26,156 nucleotides of DNA from a virus (lineage: Duplodnaviria > Heunggongvirae > Uroviricota > Caudoviricetes): the IMG/VR virus record IMGVR_UViG_2585427783_000007. One strand, given 5' to 3'. Below the pieces are notes generated by a model that was not told the origin of the DNA, did not search any database, and saw only the letters and a list, made by a program, of their open reading frames with translations. This document shows positions 3,890 through 12,544 of the stretch, piece after piece (position 1 is the first letter of the stretch; each line of letters opens with the position of its first letter). The position numbers were made by a program, and so were the translations under genes.

Positions 3890-4300
3890 ATGCACGCAAA
3901 AGAAGAAGGTATCATCAGAGCACTGAAAGAAATTTCAAAGACAGAAAACGAAGTAGCGAAAAAAGCCATAGCAAATAATCATATGGACGTCGCAACCCAC
4001 ACACTGATAGTCGCAAGAGTCACGGCAGAAGCAGCCGAAATTATCGCAAAACAGGATGCTGAACTGGCGGTTCTCAGAACACAACCAGTCACCGGACTGG
4101 ATTTGTCTAACACCGGACGCCTTATTTACACAATTGGCTCAGAGCCACAGCGATACACCATTATCGCCGGATTACAGGACAAATACCTGATCACTCCTTA
4201 CCCCATAAGGGAATCAGCGCTTCTGACAAATCTCCACCTGATAGAGCGCTCTCAGGTCGCATTCATTGATGACGCCCAACACACCGTATTTAACGCATAG
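3890..4300 (+). CDS. Hypothetical early protein (136 aa)
   Basis: ATG at 3890 with GGAG 9 nt upstream; table ORF. Confidence 0.6.
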   Translation: MHAKEEGIIRALKEISKTENEVAKKAIANNHMDVATHTLIVARVTAEAAEIIAKQDAELAVLRTQPVTGLDLSNTGRLIYTIGSEPQRYTIIAGLQDKYLITPYPIRESALLTNLHLIERSQVAFIDDAQHTVFNA

Positions 4301-4329
4301 GGTTACTGGACAAAAAAAGAGGGGGGGCA

Positions 4330-4533
4330 ATGGCAATTAAGCATTTTCCCGTCGTTCGCTTTACCTCCAGAGGGCACGAATACGAGGTCGACGAACGCCT
4401 GATTACCACTATCGACAAACATCGTTCGGAAAAGGATGCACACCACATCTACCTCACTGACGGCACTTACTTCTGCGCCACCAACGTGGCGCGAGTAAAT
4501 CTTATCCGACAGGTACAGGAGCCACGCAGATGA
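4330..4533 (+). CDS. Hypothetical early protein (67 aa)
   Basis: ATG at 4330 preceded by an A7-GA-G7 tract acting as RBS; stop overlaps the next start. Confidence 0.55.
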   Translation: MAIKHFPVVRFTSRGHEYEVDERLITTIDKHRSEKDAHHIYLTDGTYFCATNVARVNLIRQVQEPRR

Positions 4534-4796
4534 CCATTCTGGACTACATCACTACTCATCCGGGGTGTAGCGGCGGAGAGATCGCCGCAGCACTGAATAC
4601 CCCAACCACAGCCATTAATGCTGAGTTACGCCGACTTTGGCGCGGCGGCTTAGTCATCAGAACAAACCGCAGCACAGGTGGTCGCGCTCGCAAAACAGGA
4701 GGCCAGGCTTCTTACCACGTAAACCCGATGCCGTTCGGGTGTAGCAATCCACTTACTCACATGTTTAACCAGCTACTGAAGGAAGCCAGAGCATGA
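4530..4796 (+). CDS. Hypothetical small DNA-binding-like protein (88 aa)
   Basis: ATG at 4530 with AGGAG 8 nt upstream; the segment GCSGGEIAAALNTPTTAINAELRRLWRGGLVIR reads like a winged-helix recognition region (inference only). Confidence 0.5.
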   Translation: MTILDYITTHPGCSGGEIAAALNTPTTAINAELRRLWRGGLVIRTNRSTGGRARKTGGQASYHVNPMPFGCSNPLTHMFNQLLKEARA

Positions 4797-5092
4797 GCAC
4801 CATCAACCACCAGAAGCTACGCGAACTGGCATTTGCCCTGCAACGAATGGCAACGCCTCAAAAATTACTGGCATTTCGCGCAATGCTCTCGCCGTCTGCT
4901 GTGCTGGCACTGCTGAATGAGCTGGAGCACGCCAGAACCACGGCCCCTGCCATTCGCCTGACGCTCCATCATGAAATCGCTGATTTCTGCGCGACGTTGG
5001 AGGCGCCGGGCGAACCGGAAACGCCGGAAGCAATACAGCAAGAGCTGCTGCAACGCATTGACAAGGTTTTTGATTTTTTTCTGAACCAGTAA
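4793..5092 (+). CDS. Hypothetical early protein (99 aa)
   Basis: ATG at 4793 overlapping the previous stop (ATGA); table ORF. Confidence 0.55.
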   Translation: MSTINHQKLRELAFALQRMATPQKLLAFRAMLSPSAVLALLNELEHARTTAPAIRLTLHHEIADFCATLEAPGEPETPEAIQQELLQRIDKVFDFFLNQ

Positions 5093-5209
5093 GAAACCAG
5101 AACATGCACACACAAAAAAACCGCTTGCCATGCCGCAATCAGTCAGGTTACATTTCCGCTGCACCTCATAAAACGGGTGCCGGGATTGGAACCCCGCTGA
5201 CTATGCACG

Positions 5210-5235
5210 CGCACAACCGCGCCAGCGGTTTTTTT
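5210..5235 (+). terminator. Hairpin plus T7 run (weak intrinsic-terminator-like element)
   Basis: CGCACAA-CCGC-GCCA-GCGG-TTTTTTT-GTGCG: inner 4-bp GC stem followed by seven T; outer 7-bp arms CGCACAA/TTGTGCG. Confidence 0.3.
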
Positions 5236-5290
5236 GTGCGTACCGTATCGCCACGTCTTTTTCGCGTCAGAATTATGGTGGGGCGTATGG

Positions 5291-5309
5291 GGCCGACTTC
5301 GGTCGGGCC
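5291..5309 (+). other. Stable GC-rich hairpin with a UUCG-type tetraloop
   Basis: GGCCGAC-TTCG-GTCGGGCC, within a 322-bp GC-rich non-coding block. Confidence 0.35.
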
Positions 5310-5346
5310 GGATTCGTGCGTAGCCGGTAGTTCCAACCCTGTACGT

Positions 5347-5387
5347 CTCACCACCCCGAGCTTGGAACCTCTGGATGGTGAGTTTTT
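5347..5387 (+). terminator. Stem (CTCACCA/TGGTGAG) with large loop followed by T5 run
   Basis: 7-bp arms at 5347-5353 and 5376-5382, then TTTTT at 5383-5387, just upstream of the RBS of the 5415 gene. Confidence 0.3.
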
Positions 5388-6089: not shown

Positions 6090-8912
6090 ATGACGGCAGA
6101 GTACCTCAGGGACTGGCAACAACCGCGCCACGCAGTGGGGCGTGAAGGAACGGGGATCCCCGCTCCTGAATCCGCGCTTTCCTCCTGGCTGGATGCCTAC
6201 CGGGCAGAGAACGAGCGCCGCCAGGAAATGGCTGATGCGGCGTTCTCAGCCACGCCGCTGGGCAACCTGATTAATAAAAGCCTGGACGCACAGGAAAAAC
6301 AGGACAAAACCATCACACTGGCAGGAGACGCCAGAAAACAGGCACGTGGCGCGGTGGATGAAGCCATGGCCTCGCTGCGCCTGCTGCCGTCCTATCTGCG
6401 CGATCCGCTTATTCGCCACCTCTCCTTCCTGCGCAAAAAACAGGAAGCCGATCGCCGGAAAGGCAAAAAGAGCTGGCAGGCGGAACGCTATGCACGCGGA
6501 ACCCTGCGCAAAATATTCGAACGTCTGGATAGCACTGACGGACGCTGGCTGACACCGGGTTATCGCTCCCTTGCCGGACGCGAACGCCTGGACGATTTGC
6601 TTTACCTGCCGCAGCTCAACAAACACCAGATACAGACGCTGGCCACCATGACGGCGGCGATGTTCAGCAGCACCTTCGAAAAACTCTGCGATGGCTTTGG
6701 CGCGACCGATGGCGAGCTGACCATGGATGTAACCCTGAAGGCGTATCAGATGCTGGCCCGCATGGCGTTACACCTGCACGCCATGCCTCCACATTATGAC
6801 GCACTGACAACAGACAAAGACCGGAGGAACGAACCGGACACGGAGCTGCTGCCGGGCGCAATCCTTCGCCTGACCTGTGCGGAATGGTGGAAACGCAAAC
6901 TGTGGCTGTTACGTTGCGAGTGGAGAGAAGAACAACTCCGCGCCGCCTGTCTGGTTTCCAGAAAAACATCACCCTATCTGAGCCAGGACGCGTTAAGCGA
7001 GTTTCGCGCACAGCGCGAGAAAACACGCGATTTCCTGAAAAGTTTCATGCTGGAAAATGAAGACGGGTTCACGATTGATCTCGAGACAGTGTATTACGCG
7101 GGAGTAAGTAACCCGGTTCACCGTAAGGCAGAAATGATGGCCACCATGAAGGGACTGGAACTTCTGGCCGAAGCCCGTGGCGACAAAGCGGTGTTTCTGA
7201 CTGTCACCTGCCCGTCAAAATACCACGCCACAACGGAGAACGGTCATCCGAATCCCAAATGGAACGGGGCCACAATGCGCGACTCCAGCGATTACCTGGT
7301 TAACACGTTTTTTGCGGCGGTCCGCAAAAAACTGAACCGCGACGGCCTGCGCTGGTATGGCATCCGCACGGTGGAGCCTCATCATGACGGCACCGTGCAC
7401 TGGCATATGATGGTCTTTGCACATCCGGAAGAAATCGACACCATTGTGTCCCATACCCGCGATATTGCCATTCAGGAAGACCGCCACGAGCTGGGCAATG
7501 ATATTACTCCGCGCTTTAAGGTGGAGTATGTCGACGGCTCAAAAGGCACGCCAACCAGCTACATCGCCACCTACATCGGAAAGAACCTGGACAGCCGCGC
7601 CGTGGATGGCATCGACCCGAAAACGGGCAAGCCACGCATGGACCACGAAACCGGAAAATCAATGGCCGAGAGCGTGGAGCGCGCCATCGGCTGGGCGCGC
7701 CTTCACCGGGTCCGTCAGTTCCAGTTCTTTGGCATCCCCTCCCGTCAGGTGTGGCGTGAACTGCGCCGCCTTGCCAGCCAGATGGCACGCAATCCGGAAG
7801 GCCCGCAACGGCTGAAAGATGATGCAATGGATGCGGTACTCGCTGCCGCCGATGCCGGGTGTTTTGCCACCTACATTGAAAAACAGGGTGGCGTGCTTGT
7901 TCCACGCAAGGACTACCTGATTCGCACCGCCTACGACCTCGCAGATGAGCTGAACGATTACGGCGAACAGAGCGTACAGATTTACGGGATCTGGTCACCA
8001 CTCATCGGGGAATCCTCCCGTGTGTGCACGCATCCGGATAACTGGAAGCTGGTAAGACGTAAACCGGAAGCGGAAGACAGCGCCCGCGAAAATGGTTTTG
8101 ACCTTCAGGACGGCCCTGCCGCCCCTTGGACTCGTGGCAATAACTGTCCCCGTGTACAGGAAACGGACAACAACGGGACAGAACAGCCGGAAGAACGGCC
8201 AGCACCGTGGCCGCAGCTTCCTGACGGCGTTGACGTGAACGAATGGATGCGCTCACTGAAACGGCACGAACGCCGGGCGCTGATGCGTTCGCTGCGTGAC
8301 AAACAGGCAAAAAACAGCAGTGATGAAATGCAGAGCTGGACACAGAGCCGCAAACAGCAGCGGCCTTTGCCTGATAACCACGAATTACTCGCTAAAGAAT
8401 GGCGGGAATCTGCCGAATCTCTCGGCCTGCATATCGGTGAACAGCAGATGCAGCACCTGTTACGGGGCGGCAGCCTGTACGTTGACGGCAGCATCATTGC
8501 ACCGCAGGGATTTGAAATTGTACGCAAACCGGATACCCGCCCGGACAGCCGAATCACGCAGCTCTGGCAGCGCCTGAGCCGTAATCACGGCGTAAGCAGC
8601 ACGGAGATCCGCCATAACCCGGTCGCCAGCTATCTGGAACAGCTGGGGGCATCAGACCCCGAAGCCGCCGCACGTCTGGCATCCACACTTCAGCAGGACC
8701 AGAACACCATGACCCCCCCCGTTACCGTGCTTTCTGACATGCTGCGCGCCATCCGCGACGCAGAGCACGCACAGAGAATCAGTGAAACCACTGAACGTGC
8801 CCGCCGCAAAGCAGACCTGCTGCGGGGTGGCCTGACCAGTGGAAACAAAAAACAGACAGAAACGGGATTCACAAATCCCGTAAATGAGCAAAAAACGCGC
8901 CGCGATATATGA
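6090..8912 (+). CDS. A: Rolling-circle replication initiator (P2 gpA-like), 940 aa with extended C-terminus
   Basis: HUH motif in EPHHDGTVHWHMMVF and paired-tyrosine motif YIATYIGKN; N-terminal and core resemblance to P2 gpA as recalled; about 180 aa longer than the ~760-aa P2 protein. Confidence 0.9.
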   Translation: MTAEYLRDWQQPRHAVGREGTGIPAPESALSSWLDAYRAENERRQEMADAAFSATPLGNLINKSLDAQEKQDKTITLAGDARKQARGAVDEAMASLRLLPSYLRDPLIRHLSFLRKKQEADRRKGKKSWQAERYARGTLRKIFERLDSTDGRWLTPGYRSLAGRERLDDLLYLPQLNKHQIQTLATMTAAMFSSTFEKLCDGFGATDGELTMDVTLKAYQMLARMALHLHAMPPHYDALTTDKDRRNEPDTELLPGAILRLTCAEWWKRKLWLLRCEWREEQLRAACLVSRKTSPYLSQDALSEFRAQREKTRDFLKSFMLENEDGFTIDLETVYYAGVSNPVHRKAEMMATMKGLELLAEARGDKAVFLTVTCPSKYHATTENGHPNPKWNGATMRDSSDYLVNTFFAAVRKKLNRDGLRWYGIRTVEPHHDGTVHWHMMVFAHPEEIDTIVSHTRDIAIQEDRHELGNDITPRFKVEYVDGSKGTPTSYIATYIGKNLDSRAVDGIDPKTGKPRMDHETGKSMAESVERAIGWARLHRVRQFQFFGIPSRQVWRELRRLASQMARNPEGPQRLKDDAMDAVLAAADAGCFATYIEKQGGVLVPRKDYLIRTAYDLADELNDYGEQSVQIYGIWSPLIGESSRVCTHPDNWKLVRRKPEAEDSARENGFDLQDGPAAPWTRGNNCPRVQETDNNGTEQPEERPAPWPQLPDGVDVNEWMRSLKRHERRALMRSLRDKQAKNSSDEMQSWTQSRKQQRPLPDNHELLAKEWRESAESLGLHIGEQQMQHLLRGGSLYVDGSIIAPQGFEIVRKPDTRPDSRITQLWQRLSRNHGVSSTEIRHNPVASYLEQLGASDPEAAARLASTLQQDQNTMTPPVTVLSDMLRAIRDAEHAQRISETTERARRKADLLRGGLTSGNKKQTETGFTNPVNEQKTRRDI

Positions 8913-8959
8913 AGCGCACACAAAACAGGCAAAAACGGGATTTCAGAATCCCGTAAACG
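8849..8959. repeat. Two 38-bp direct repeats (31/38 identical), each with an 8-bp perfect hairpin ACGGGATT-N4-AATCCCGT; candidate centromere or operator
   Basis: Unit 1 at 8849-8886 (inside the last codons of A), unit 2 at 8922-8959 (30 bp upstream of the parM ATG); mismatches cluster in the hairpin loops. Confidence 0.6.
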
Positions 8960-8988
8960 ATTAATTAATCAACATAAGGAAAAGCGAC

Positions 8989-9948
8989 ATGAAAATTTGT
9001 ATCGACGACGGCTCCACCAACATCAAGCTGGCATGGACTGAGAATGGCGAACGCCGCAACGCCATCAGCCCGAACAGCTTCAAGTCGGAATGGTCTGCGC
9101 CGTTCGGTGGCATGCAGCCCGCGAACTACATGCTTGATGGCGTGCGCTATGGTTTTGATCCGGTTAGCGATCGCTTTGTCCAGACGACCGACACGCAATA
9201 CCAGTACAGCGATGTGAATGTAATCGCCATTCATCACGCGCTGGTCAAATCAGGCATCACGCCACAGGAGGTGGATGTGGTTGTCACCCTGCCACTGAGC
9301 GAGTATTTCGACACAAACGCACAGCCGGACATGGCCAACATCAACCGCAAAAAAGCGAACGTTATGCGCCCGGTGGAGTACCAGAACGGCGAAGCATTCA
9401 CTATCCGTAACGTGCGGGTTATGCCTGAATCCATTCCGGCTGGCTTTAAAGCACTGGCTGACATGAGTCCGTTTGAATCCCTGCTGATTGTGGATTTAGG
9501 CGGAACCACGCTGGATGTGGCAAAGGTTCAGGGGCAACTGGCAGGTATCAGCCAGGTGTTTTGCGATCCACACGTAGGCGTCTCCCTGATGGCCGGTGCC
9601 GTGCTGTCGGTGATGGCCGCTAACGGTATGCGTACCAGTCACCACATCGCCAATACCATTATCGAACATCGCCATGATGAAGCCTGGTTGCGCCAACACA
9701 TCCACAATGACGCGCATTACGCCAGCCTGATGGCGGTTATTCGTGAAAAGGAAGAAACACTGAAACAACGCGTGATCCGCGCGCTGGCGGGTTTTTCGGG
9801 TTACGGGCGGGTGATGGTTGTCGGTGGCGGGGCGGAGATTGTGGCACCCGCTATCCGCGAAGCCTGCGGAGTTAATGCGACTTTCATCGCGGACGAGGTG
9901 CCACAGTTTGCTCTGGTTAATGGGCTGTACGCAATGGACAAGGAGTAA
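8989..9948 (+). CDS. parM: ParM/StbA-family actin-like segregation ATPase
   Basis: 319 aa; MKICIDDGSTNIKLAW..., ...LLIVDLGGTTLDV..., ...VMVVGGGAEI... are actin/ASKHA phosphate and adenosine motifs; co-linear resemblance over the whole length to plasmid R1 ParM as I recall it. AAGGA RBS 8 nt upstream. Confidence 0.85.
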   Translation: MKICIDDGSTNIKLAWTENGERRNAISPNSFKSEWSAPFGGMQPANYMLDGVRYGFDPVSDRFVQTTDTQYQYSDVNVIAIHHALVKSGITPQEVDVVVTLPLSEYFDTNAQPDMANINRKKANVMRPVEYQNGEAFTIRNVRVMPESIPAGFKALADMSPFESLLIVDLGGTTLDVAKVQGQLAGISQVFCDPHVGVSLMAGAVLSVMAANGMRTSHHIANTIIEHRHDEAWLRQHIHNDAHYASLMAVIREKEETLKQRVIRALAGFSGYGRVMVVGGGAEIVAPAIREACGVNATFIADEVPQFALVNGLYAMDKE

Positions 9949-9952
9949 ACCA

Positions 9953-10267
9953 ATGACGACACCAACCAGACGGATAAGTTTCTATCTGAAGCCAGTCGCC
10001 GTCAATAGTGAACGGGAGGCGTGTAATTACCTCGACAGCCTGCCAGCCTCTGAACGCAGCCGCGCGCAACGCGCGGCCTTTCTGGCCGGGCTGGCACTCA
10101 TAAAACGCGATCCTGCATTTGCCTATTGGTTGGCCGAATGGCCGGAAGAAGGAGCTGCGCCAGCCAAGAATAATATTCAGAGTAAATATGCCAGCACACC
10201 TGCCACCGGAAGCAATCACAGCACTAGCGAGATAAGAAAGAACATTCAGTCATTTTTCCCAGAGTGA
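9953..10267 (+). CDS. parR: ParR-like centromere-binding adaptor (104 aa)
   Basis: ATG at 9953 with AGGAG inside the parM 3' end; N-terminal RRISFYLKP...LDSLPASERSRAQRAAFLAGLAL matches the pattern of the R1 ParR ribbon-helix-helix region as recalled; follows parM as in R1. Confidence 0.7.
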   Translation: MTTPTRRISFYLKPVAVNSEREACNYLDSLPASERSRAQRAAFLAGLALIKRDPAFAYWLAEWPEEGAAPAKNNIQSKYASTPATGSNHSTSEIRKNIQSFFPE

Positions 10268-10286
10268 AAACAGGAGAGGAGCATCT

Positions 10287-10721
10287 ATGGCAACTATCCC
10301 CAAAAAATGGTTACAACGCAAAATTGCAGACCTTGAATCGTGTCGTGAAGACATCCCGTTTGGCCTTGATGAAAACGATCACAATATGTTAATCGCACTG
10401 AAAATCGCACTCACATCGCTGGAAGCAGAGCCAGTTATGTTCTGTATATCAGGACAAAATGTAGATTCAGAAGAACATGTATCAACCAGCAAAGCGGTTG
10501 TTGATGCCTGGGTTGAAGAATGGAATCAGGTTGACGGAAGTCCAGGCGAACCACTGTACAAAACTATGCCACTCTACTATCACGCTGCCTTGCCAGCGCC
10601 GGTAGTGCCGGATGAAATGTATTGGCAGGATGCGCCAGTTGAAGGCAGCAGCAAAGCGGCTGCATACGCTACAGGCTGGAACGCCTGCCGCGCCGCTATG
10701 CTTCATGGGAAAGGAGAGTGA
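10287..10721 (+). CDS. Hypothetical acidic protein (144 aa)
   Basis: ATG at 10287 with AGGAGAGGAG RBS; same operon as parMR; no family recognised. Confidence 0.6.
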   Translation: MATIPKKWLQRKIADLESCREDIPFGLDENDHNMLIALKIALTSLEAEPVMFCISGQNVDSEEHVSTSKAVVDAWVEEWNQVDGSPGEPLYKTMPLYYHAALPAPVVPDEMYWQDAPVEGSSKAAAYATGWNACRAAMLHGKGE

Positions 10722-10722
10722 T

Positions 10723-10986
10723 ATGGCAACTTTAACAAAAAAAGAACGGGCATGGTTGAACGAATTACAGGACGTTCTTGATCGCTGCCCATCACCGAAA
10801 AAAATTGGTTTTTACACCATTGGCGATAAAAGCATTTACCTGTATGACCTGCGCCGCATGGATGAAATCATGGAGGCTCTTGATAATCGTTCTTCGATGG
10901 ATTGGTGTGTTGCTGTCCATGATATGAATGCAGGGTTTGATGAAAAGATTTTGTTCCCCTCATCAGTTGAAAGCACAGCAGGATAA
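10723..10986 (+). CDS. Hypothetical acidic protein (87 aa)
   Basis: ATG at 10723, 1 nt after the upstream stop, with AAGGAG 6 nt upstream; last gene before a terminator. Confidence 0.6.
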   Translation: MATLTKKERAWLNELQDVLDRCPSPKKIGFYTIGDKSIYLYDLRRMDEIMEALDNRSSMDWCVAVHDMNAGFDEKILFPSSVESTAG

Positions 10987-11021
10987 GGACCCAGCAAATA
11001 TACACAACCTATAAAACACTA

Positions 11022-11048
11022 AAGCGCCTCAGGGGCGCTTTTTGTTTG
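11022..11048 (+). terminator. Intrinsic terminator ending the parM-parR-unknown operon
   Basis: AAGCGCC-TCAGG-GGCGCTT (7-bp stem) followed by TTTGTTTG, 35 bp after the last stop codon. Confidence 0.55.
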
Positions 11049-11073
11049 CACAAAAGTGCACAAATTTGCACAA
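11047..11073. repeat. Three TGCACAA direct repeats at exact 10-bp phasing
   Basis: TGCACAA at 11047, 11057 and 11067, one helical turn apart, followed by a T7 run; likely a protein-binding array in the cos-proximal region. Confidence 0.4.
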
Positions 11074-11319
11074 TTTTTTTGAACGACTTTTTACCCTTCC
11101 GGCCCGCATGGCGGCTGGATCCGTCAAGGATCCGTGCGTGCACAAAAAAACGCGTTTTTTCTGCGCGCAGGTGACGGGGGAACAGCCCGCGTTTCAGGGG
11201 GTAAATAGCACTCCCTGAACGATGTCGCAGAGATACAACAGAATGGCTGTATTTCTCACGCTGAGCGTGAAAAAGACGTGAGGGCTTTTGATTTGATGGG
11301 GTGGCAGATAAGGCCGTCA

Positions 11320-11350
11320 AAATCGCACTGAGGCGGCGAAAACATGCAGT
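11320..11350. other. Candidate cos (cohesive-end) site
   Basis: GAGGCGGCGAAAACATGCA, about 150 bp from the Q stop, partially resembles the P2/186 cohesive-end sequence as I recall it (roughly 13 of 19 positions). The position between the A-side cargo and Q matches P2. Low confidence; memory-based. Confidence 0.3.
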
Positions 11351-11497
11351 CAGCGCAGTGGGATTGCGTAAGAGTCTGACCGTCGATGATGGCAATAAGC
11401 AGGAAAGCGTCGTGAAATTATCTGATTGATACAGGAGCTGGAGAGTCGGGGCATAAATTTTTTATGCCCCGGCGAAGCAGCAGACAAGCGAAGCGCG

Positions 11498-12544
11498 TCA
11501 GGATGTGGGCTGGGTGTCTAACAGTGCGTAAGGGTTAAAGCGGATCACCTCTTCGCCAAGCCAGTCATTGATGTGCTTCATGGCCTCCATGACAGGCATC
11601 AGCTCGTTAATTGCGTAAACCCGCGCGGCCTTCTCCACATCACCAAACGCACTTTTTTCGCCCGGCATCGCCCCCATCAGTTGCGGCGGAACGCGGTGCG
11701 CAGCCAGCACATCATCACGGGATGCCGCCTTAACATTCATGAACTCATCTTTTGCGGTGATCTGCTGGAACGGCAAAATTTGCACCCCCTCTTTGCCCCC
11801 GTTGGGCGCATGAATGAGCACGTTTTTAAATGCACCACCACCACGCGCACCCTGTAACGTTTCTTTCAGGGAGTCCATGCTTTCGCGGTTTACCTGCGCT
11901 GCACCGATGTAGATGATGCACCCGGCGTGGGATCCGTTGTCGTAGTACAGTTTTCTGAACATGTCCGCCGAATGAGAAAGGCTGGCCGAGAGTAATGCGC
12001 CAAGATATTCCGGCATGCCGTAGATTTCCTGGTTAATATCCGGATTCATCAGGTGGCACACTTTGCCAGGGCGAAACTGGAACGCGTCCTTGCCATCCTG
12101 CACATACCACCATGATTCAAGATCGCTTCCGCGTCGCATGTATTTCGCCAGGGCGTGCCGTAATTTAAGCGGTTCGCCGAGCATATTGCTACGAAGCTCA
12201 AGGAATGCGTTACCGAACACAAACCAGTCCAGCGCCAGCGCCGAGAAATCCTGCCGGGAAAGCAGCGGGTGCGGGATGTAGCAACCGAGTAATACATTGC
12301 GCTTAAAGTAAAGCGCAGACTGATGCCAGGACGTTTGCCGGGCAGCTCTTGCCAGACCGTACCAGTCCACCGGGGTTTCATACCACCGCCCGTTATCAGC
12401 ACAGTACATATTATCCAGCAGGTCATGCCCGGTCAGGCGATAAGGACCATCAAATGTGAATGCACTGAGCGATGATTCTTTCCTGAGCGCATCAGCGAGA
12501 TCAATGCGTGAACTCATGCGCACTTTTTTATTTTTTCTGCTCAT
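11498..12544 (-). CDS. Q: Portal protein (P2 gpQ-like), 348 aa
   Basis: Size and position next to cos and downstream of the terminase on the minus strand; its ATG overlaps the P stop (ATGA). Confidence 0.85.
   Translation of the reverse strand: MSRKNKKVRMSSRIDLADALRKESSLSAFTFDGPYRLTGHDLLDNMYCADNGRWYETPVDWYGLARAARQTSWHQSALYFKRNVLLGCYIPHPLLSRQDFSALALDWFVFGNAFLELRSNMLGEPLKLRHALAKYMRRGSDLESWWYVQDGKDAFQFRPGKVCHLMNPDINQEIYGMPEYLGALLSASLSHSADMFRKLYYDNGSHAGCIIYIGAAQVNRESMDSLKETLQGARGGGAFKNVLIHAPNGGKEGVQILPFQQITAKDEFMNVKAASRDDVLAAHRVPPQLMGAMPGEKSAFGDVEKAARVYAINELMPVMEAMKHINDWLGEEVIRFNPYALLDTQPTS

Follow-up and report, generated by a model that had tools for sequence, protein, structure and literature searches.

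The window analysed here is the whole 26,156-nucleotide (nt) stretch of IMG/VR record IMGVR_UViG_2585427783_000007, a P88-like prophage of the P2 family (genus Xuanwuvirus), and the element in question is a pair of palindrome-bearing repeats at the junction between the replication gene A and a parM-parR operon of R1-plasmid type. A 401-base-pair (bp) stretch around the repeats matched 14 phage records at 95-99% identity, phage P88 included, and was present in 1370 of 5426 complete Escherichia coli genomes (about a quarter); 1530 of its 1532 genomic places were chromosomal and 2 were on plasmids. P88-like prophages as such are present in about 1300 of the 5426 genomes. The best reading of the element is as a predicted parC-class site whose palindromic layout is unusual. 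The features of the locus are listed below in window coordinates.

6090..8912, plus strand: gene A, replication endonuclease, 940 amino acids (Pfam Phage_GPA, E 4.9e-131); its 3' end overlaps repeat unit 1.
8110..8145, plus strand: predicted A nick site (origin), from alignment to the annotated P2 nick site; outside the repeat element.
8845..8887, no strand: repeat unit 1 (43 nt), from the repeat search, within the last codons of gene A.
8862..8881, no strand: palindrome 1, ACGGGATT-CACA-AATCCCGT (-10.7 kcal/mol), whose core GGG-N10-CCC is kept in the Hafnia (L100) and Plesiomonas (L102) loci described below.
8888..8917, no strand: 30-bp G+C-rich spacer, the most polymorphic segment outside the loops, containing the A stop codon at 8910-8912.
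8918..8960, no strand: repeat unit 2 (43 nt), in the A-parM gap; its left part, AACAGGCAAAAACGGGA, is a 17-nt word in common with the Serratia locus L103.
8935..8954, no strand: palindrome 2, ACGGGATT-TCAG-AATCCCGT, from inverted-repeat search and folding.
8964..8972, plus strand: ATTAATCAA box, conserved in E. coli, Hafnia and Plesiomonas at 11-14 nt 3' of motif 2.
8975..8980, plus strand: Shine-Dalgarno-like TAAGGA, read from the sequence, 8 nt 5' of the parM ATG.
8989..9948, plus strand: parM, actin-like segregation ATPase, 319 amino acids (Pfam StbA_N, E 2.7e-82; ParM C-terminal domain, E 1.1e-67).
9953..10267, plus strand: parR, ribbon-helix-helix adaptor, 104 amino acids (Pfam PF10784 Plasmid_stab_B, E 3.8e-25); proposed to bind the repeats.

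The repeat search of the window returned two 43-nt copies, 35/43 identical (81%), with a start-to-start distance of 73 bp and a total span of 116 bp. Within each copy, two arms of 8 bp form a perfect inverted repeat across a 4-nt gap (8862-8869/8874-8881 and 8935-8942/8947-8954), of the general form ACGGGATT-N4-AATCCCGT. Of the 8 differences between the copies, 4 fill the 4-nt loop and 4 fall among the 23 flanking positions; the 16 stem positions are identical. An earlier note on this DNA, made from the sequence alone, had described two 38-nt units (8849-8886 and 8922-8959, 31/38 identical) with perfect 8-bp stems and 4-nt loops, one of them inside the final codons of A; this description was confirmed, unit 1 lying within the A open reading frame (ORF). 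With up to 3 mismatches allowed, the 20-nt palindrome pattern had just 2 sites in the window, where 0.07 were expected, and 1 of 100 shuffles gave 2 or more. Folded as RNA, each hairpin reached -10.7 kcal/mol (z -3.4 to -4.2) and the 161-nt repeat region gave z = -5.0. Read in a register of 10.5 bp from position 8846, the element looks like 5 A-rich units, 2 G+C-rich core units and 5 further A-rich units, all degenerate, with CAAAAAC-type words recurring in phase. AA dinucleotides also showed a periodicity peak at 10.5 bp; because 73/7 = 10.4 is a harmonic of the 73-bp repeat itself, the peak is confounded and was dropped as independent evidence of DNA curvature.

Unit 2 is located inside the 76-bp A-parM gap, with its end 28 nt short of the parM ATG, and parR follows parM at a distance of 4 nt. 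Compared with plasmid ParM proteins, the ParM of the phage shows 47-52% identity. Residues 6-61 of ParR match PDB chain 2jd3_A (depositor name 'STBB PROTEIN', E 0.0044); this entry is the ribbon-helix-helix ParR of plasmid pB171.

ParM proteins with 54-62% identity to that of the window were found in P2-like prophages of Hafnia (L100), Plesiomonas (L102), Serratia (L103, L187) and Enterobacter-like hosts (L104, L188, L189), with parM always 3' of A and 5' of the ogr, portal and terminase genes. Since this placement is shared in all of the distant loci, parMR is judged to be an old component of one branch of P2-like phages. The Hafnia and Plesiomonas loci (ParM 62% identical) each have a pair of GGG-N10-CCC motifs just upstream of parM, spaced by 73 bp in Hafnia and 72 bp in Plesiomonas. 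Motif 2 is followed by the ATTAATCAA box, at a distance of 14 nt in these two lineages and 11 nt in E. coli, and then by the parM ribosome-binding site; part of the evidence for the box is TATTAATCAAA, common to both loci. The motif sites of the three lineages are as follows.

E. coli: GGGATTCACAAATCCC and GGGATTTCAGAATCCC.
Hafnia: GGGATTGAGGAAACCC and GGGTTCATTAAATCCC.
Plesiomonas: GGGACAACAAAAACCC and GGGACAACACTAACCC.

A form R-N-A-A-W-N-G, read by eye, lies 3' of all six sites. Hafnia and Plesiomonas do not keep the inner ATT/AAT pairs of the E. coli stems and lack the A-runs that flank the E. coli units, and the plus-strand folds of their motifs (-4.5 to -4.9 kcal/mol) are mostly no better than those of shuffled sequence. 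The conserved part is thus GGG-N10-CCC with its 72-73-bp spacing, rather than stem pairing. In Hafnia an ORF of 167 amino acids is interposed between A and parM and both motifs fall in its 3' end; the reading frame through the motif is GGG-ATT in Hafnia versus xCG-GGA in E. coli and Plesiomonas. Because the upstream ORF and the reading frame differ in Hafnia and the folds are unstable, the constraint is taken to act on DNA and not on protein, to travel with parM and not with A, and to require no stable hairpin.

The rarity of the arrangement was gauged by pattern scans. A motif-pair pattern for loci other than P88-like ones (TTGATTAAT...GGG-N10-CCC...GGG-N10-CCC) had 0 matches in viral contigs, and the same layout (TTGATTAAT...two GGG-N10-CCC) had 6 matches in the whole JGI metagenome collection, of which 0 adjoined parM and which were regarded as chance matches. 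With the pattern this rare, the presence of the motif pair at the equivalent place in two further lineages is held not to be due to chance. A search of viral contigs with a profile built on distant ParM proteins returned results filled by P88-like loci, and single-protein scans with the Hafnia and Plesiomonas ParM proteins yielded no close relatives; the Plesiomonas scan recovered just the contig L189, of the Serratia/Enterobacter subgroup (subgroup 2).

Upstream of parM in this Serratia/Enterobacter subgroup the layout is different: a long inverted repeat CGGGAACGATATAGAAAAAT, 26-28 nt, then ATTTTTCTGTTTCGTTCCCA. An inverted repeat with 20-nt arms was observed upstream of parM in L103, L104, L188 and L189. 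The arms have 12-14-nt words in common with the 10-bp direct repeats upstream of parM in a plasmid of the IncL/M (pOXA-48-type) group, L095, namely ATATAGAAAAAT and CAATATAGAAAAAT, shared by the same four loci with L095 positions 1366-1478. The 17-nt word common to window unit 2 and the Serratia locus L103 was noted above; the maximum length of a shared word over 300 shuffled pairs was 11 nt. In all of the sampled plasmid loci, 10-11-bp repeats form two clusters upstream of parM, which in L095 are 73 bp apart. As a separate observation, the flank of Hafnia unit 1, AAACCCAAAAAC, is identical to a repeat word upstream of parM in plasmid L098, which was taken as R1-like.

The beta-strand of ribbon-helix-helix proteins is their DNA-reading element, and in ParR it reads TRR(I/V)SFYL in all three lineages with GGG-N10-CCC motifs, NRKISFYL in the Serratia/Enterobacter subgroup, and NRKCSFYI in IncFIA/IncFIC (L094) and IncL/M (L095) plasmids. 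The type of beta-strand thus matches the type of site, which is suggestive only, given the few lineages. Escherichia P88-like ParR proteins (L086-L092, L106-L108) range from 50% to 99% in identity, with ParM at 97-98% and the upstream repeats unchanged; their divergence is confined to a linker of ~30 amino acids between the ribbon-helix-helix domain and the conserved C-terminal tail KNIQxxFPE. The homologues of 50-78% identity all lie behind the same repeats and diverge in the linker, and as a test of co-evolution they were uninformative. In one E. coli prophage (L092) the N-terminal domain of ParR has diverged; its beta-strand and its motifs are identical.

Variation within E. coli was assessed in a close-relative set of 83 loci whose ParM is 97% identical or more, with 54 different upstream sequences among them, and in a larger diversity set of 120 distinct longer stretches from about 210 loci. 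Among the 54 variants there were no compensatory changes in either stem, and transitions in the stems disrupt pairing about equally on either strand. The loops vary recurrently (CACA to CACG; TCAG to TAAA). Across the 120 sequences nucleotide diversity was 0.030 in the CGGG/CCCG cores, 0.053 over all stem positions, 0.063 in the spacer (57% of sites segregating with the minor allele seen at least twice) and 0.176 in the loops, and in parM it was 0.077 at third codon positions and 0.014 at first and second positions. From these diversities and the pattern of variants it follows that the element is moderately constrained, in a manner that does not indicate base pairing. The earlier note had suggested selection on the stem; this is not supported as stated, given the lack of compensatory changes in E. 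coli and of stable hairpins in Hafnia and Plesiomonas, and the covariation check it had proposed, applied within E. coli, does not discriminate between the readings.

Some further observations concern variants and single loci. The spacer at 8898-8917 occurs as two haplotypes in E. coli prophages (CGCGATATATGAAGCGC and CATAAAACATGAAGTGC), which change the end of A from RRDI to RHKT. In E. coli EC7518 (L237, NZ_CP085183.1) a deletion fuses a DUF4761 gene to parM, taking out A and both repeat units and leaving parM and parR; the prophage is defective with A deleted, and this repeat-less variant was set aside as uninformative about function. In L047 (IMGVR_UViG_3300029071_000010, 4001-5380) the parM match extends over 1380 nt versus 957, which suggests an insertion of ~420 bp inside parM. 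A parM locus 97% identical to that of the window is found on a 226-kb contig of an assembly labelled Vagococcus sp. WN89Y (L004, NZ_JBQPOM010000071.1), probably through contamination or a mislabelled assembly.

Taken together, these results lead us to propose that the two units serve a prophage type II (ParMRC) module as its parC-like centromere and operator, a reading to which we assign a probability of about 0.6. The element stands directly upstream of the parM-parR operon; a cognate actin-like ParM and a ribbon-helix-helix ParR are both encoded; and the motifs are repeated in two blocks, with the same layout in the Hafnia and Plesiomonas loci. The lower diversity of the cores (0.030) than of parM third positions (0.077) was also counted in its favour, as were the beta-strand shared by the three motif-bearing lineages and the retention of identical motifs in L092. 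Because the motif and its spacing are kept and the inner stem pairs, the hairpins and the A-T runs are not, the comparison favours a double-stranded, dyad-symmetric binding site, most plausibly for ParR, over an RNA hairpin or a terminator. Among the three readings offered in the earlier note, that of a parC-like centromere or operator emerged as the best supported, in that the motif pair stays with parM and the second subgroup shares 12-14-nt words with plasmid sites.

In the proposed mechanism, ParR dimers would bind each dyad site, recognising the core GGG-N10-CCC and, in E. coli, its extension to ACGGGATT-N4-AATCCCGT. As 73 bp corresponds to ~7 helical turns, the two sites would be presented on the same face of the DNA, within surrounding DNA that contains A-runs. 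The resulting ParR-DNA complex would cap ParM filaments by way of the conserved C-terminal tail of ParR and, as a form of autoregulation, would restrict the transcription that enters parM. ParR binding, partition activity and repression are all predictions of this scheme. The potential to form hairpins would be a by-product of dyad symmetry and not the working form.

In the surrounding region, a sigma-70 scan gave no plus-strand site within 8600-11600, and the designation of the repeats as lying in the parM promoter region, as in the earlier note, is accordingly not confirmed. Hexamers that could be read by eye as a promoter were weak and not conserved between lineages, and no promoter is claimed. 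With no sigma-70 match near the repeats, parMR may be read through from the early operon or may have a weak, unrecognised promoter. The last ~145 amino acids of A (window ~8478-8912, unit 1 included) had no tblastn match in other P2-like A proteins and look like a lineage-specific extension running into unit 1. The P2 nick-site sequence GCGCCTCGGAGTCCTGTCAATAACTGT aligns with GCCCCTTGGACTCGTGGCAATAACTGT of the window at about 8127, ~730 bp upstream of the repeats, and this sequence (~8110-8145) is likely the origin of the prophage. A 15-codon ORF at 8908-8955 (MKRTQNRQKRDFRIP), whose start overlaps the A stop codon as ATGA, passes through hairpin 2; it is probably not a gene and was rejected as one, its amino acids not being conserved and common variants changing residues. 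Farther downstream, a strong bidirectional terminator-like hairpin at 11021-11041 (AAAGCGCCTCAGGGGCGCTTT, flanked on either side by T-runs) separates the early-strand cargo ORFs from the portal/terminase operon; to judge by the P2 gene map, the cos site probably follows just to its right.

Other explanations of the repeats were weighed against the binding-site reading. The units could be tandem intrinsic terminators of the minus strand, stopping leftward antisense transcripts through parR and parM before they reach gene A. The earlier note had stated that the hairpins are not plus-strand terminators, and there is indeed no plus-strand T-run; it had overlooked that in a terminator scan both hairpins score as terminator-like on the minus strand, where they fold at -10.2 kcal/mol with tails TTCTGTCTGT and TTTTGCCTGT, and two weak minus-strand promoter-like sites are present at 10946 and 10485. 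The strong bidirectional terminator at 11021-11041 already separates the late portal/terminase operon from the repeat region, however, no minus-strand gene is annotated between 8960 and 11000, and the Hafnia and Plesiomonas motifs have no minus-strand T-run and folding energies of about -4.5 to -8.4 kcal/mol, for the most part no more favourable than those of shuffled sequence, which leaves this explanation unlikely. The stability of both hairpins on the plus strand (-10.7 kcal/mol), together with the common hairpin-2 variants A8935G and C8952T, which retain G-U pairs on that strand, would suit hairpins acting in the mRNA, whether as RNase processing sites, by stabilising A mRNA at its 3' end or by controlling how parM is translated. 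Such a role is quite improbable when 0 of the 54 variants carry a compensatory change, ~7 of 10 stem transitions (hand count) break plus-strand pairing, hairpin 1 lies within translated sequence, the hairpins are not conserved in Hafnia or Plesiomonas, and no Rfam match was found at E<=1 other than a spurious microRNA match.

A dyad motif implies a dimeric DNA-binding protein without identifying which, and the link between ParR and the site is itself drawn from their association; the sites might accordingly serve a different protein (the phage regulators Cox or C, a MarR-like protein, or a host factor) that controls the A-parM junction and has no part in partition. This is improbable in view of the neighbourhood: beyond gene A and the late genes, which all P2-like phages have, parM and parR are the sole neighbours kept in the three lineages, the motif stays adjacent to parM and not to A, and the palindrome occurs nowhere else in the window, the early-gene control region included. 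It is very doubtful that the repeats are a non-functional remnant of a 73-bp tandem duplication. The start-to-start spacing does equal unit plus spacer, and the ends of the spacer are faintly similar (GAAGCGCAC and AAAGCGACA), but the layout with its 72-73-bp spacing persists at 62% ParM identity, where the sequence between and inside the motifs has turned over. A part in the A-dependent replication origin, the third reading of the earlier note, would fit the location of the P2 origin inside gene A and of unit 1 inside A. It is extremely unlikely, since the homologue of the P2 nick site lies at about 8127 and not at 8845-8960, the C-terminal part of A that includes unit 1 is unique to P88-like phages and without counterpart in other P2-like A proteins, and the Hafnia motifs lie outside A, in a different ORF.

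Certain observations weigh against a ParR-bound centromere and operator as well. The element resides in an integrated prophage, chromosomal at 1530 of 1532 places, where the need for a centromere is not evident. Its two palindromes of 20 bp each are unlike the direct 10-11-bp iteron arrays of plasmid parM loci, and the sigma-70 scan found no counterpart to the par promoter held within the parC of plasmid R1. Polymorphism of the element in E. coli is only moderately reduced relative to synonymous sites, and variants that weaken the palindromes are common (T8868C in hairpin 1; A8935G and C8952T in hairpin 2). Finally, the motif pair is found in just three independent lineages, to which the metagenome scan added none.

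The closest known systems may be compared with the proposed centromere. The prophage D6, which is P1-like, persists as a plasmid, a setting in which the role of a centromere is obvious. Like the window, D6 has a phage-borne StbA-type ParM (48% identical) and a ParR, with TCTCA-type repeats upstream; unlike the window, it is a 91-kb P1-like phage with annotated partition genes, and its repeats are unrelated in sequence. The repeats of L095, the presumed parC of that plasmid, resemble those of the window in forming two clusters 73 bp apart upstream of parM, but consist of direct 10-bp units (GTATTTTTCT) instead of GGG-N10-CCC dyads, and the beta-strand of the L095 ParR is NRKCSFYI in place of TRRISFYL in the window.

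The parC of plasmid R1 is 159 bp long, with 11-bp iterons arranged 5+5 about a 39-bp core that holds the promoter (PMC2241845). As in the window, it is placed directly upstream of parM-parR, with two repeat blocks around a central core, an A-rich top strand and an apparent phasing of roughly 10.5 bp, and its partner proteins belong to the same Pfam families (StbA_N/ParM and Plasmid_stab_B). The 10.5-bp register described above would, on this comparison, resemble the R1 layout. Where R1 has 10 direct iterons, the window has a 116-bp element in which two 43-nt units, each with a 20-bp palindrome, enclose a 30-bp core; it also differs in having no promoter match, in that half of the element is in a coding region, and in that the replicon is an integrated prophage.

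In the prophage CGP3 of Corynebacterium glutamicum, the AlpA/AlpC/alpS system is needed for efficient replication of excised phage DNA (PMC4446434, PMC5539076). CGP3, too, is an integrated prophage; it encodes a filament-forming actin-like protein and a DNA-binding adaptor, and the repeats that the adaptor binds lie in the upstream region of the operon. The protein sequence families are unrelated to those of the window, the adaptor gene comes first, and alpS is made up of 24 short TTAAnnG repeats. By analogy with this system, a tentative and on balance doubtful version of the proposal is that the element is a type II centromere of an integrating P2-family phage which would act in the extrachromosomal phase and not in plasmid inheritance. 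ParR bound to the palindromes would then couple excised or replicating phage circles to ParM filaments, positioning or separating the circles. An equally tentative addition is that ParR, in the E. coli lineage, would recognise an extruded cruciform or hairpin form of the extended palindromes.

A search of one paper library found nothing on the function of the P88-type parMR module. The 116-bp element with its two palindromes now provides a short, defined DNA target on which ParR binding can be tested, and the importance of the finding rests mainly on this direct testability and on the prophage being so common in E. coli. The locus also shows that sites upstream of parM can consist of dyad-symmetric motifs as well as direct iteron arrays. 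The element bears on whether a chromosomal centromere of plasmid type interferes with plasmids that carry related parC sites, and on why an integrating phage keeps an actin-like segregation machine; if the version acting in the extrachromosomal phase is true, about one in four complete E. coli genomes would carry such a system.

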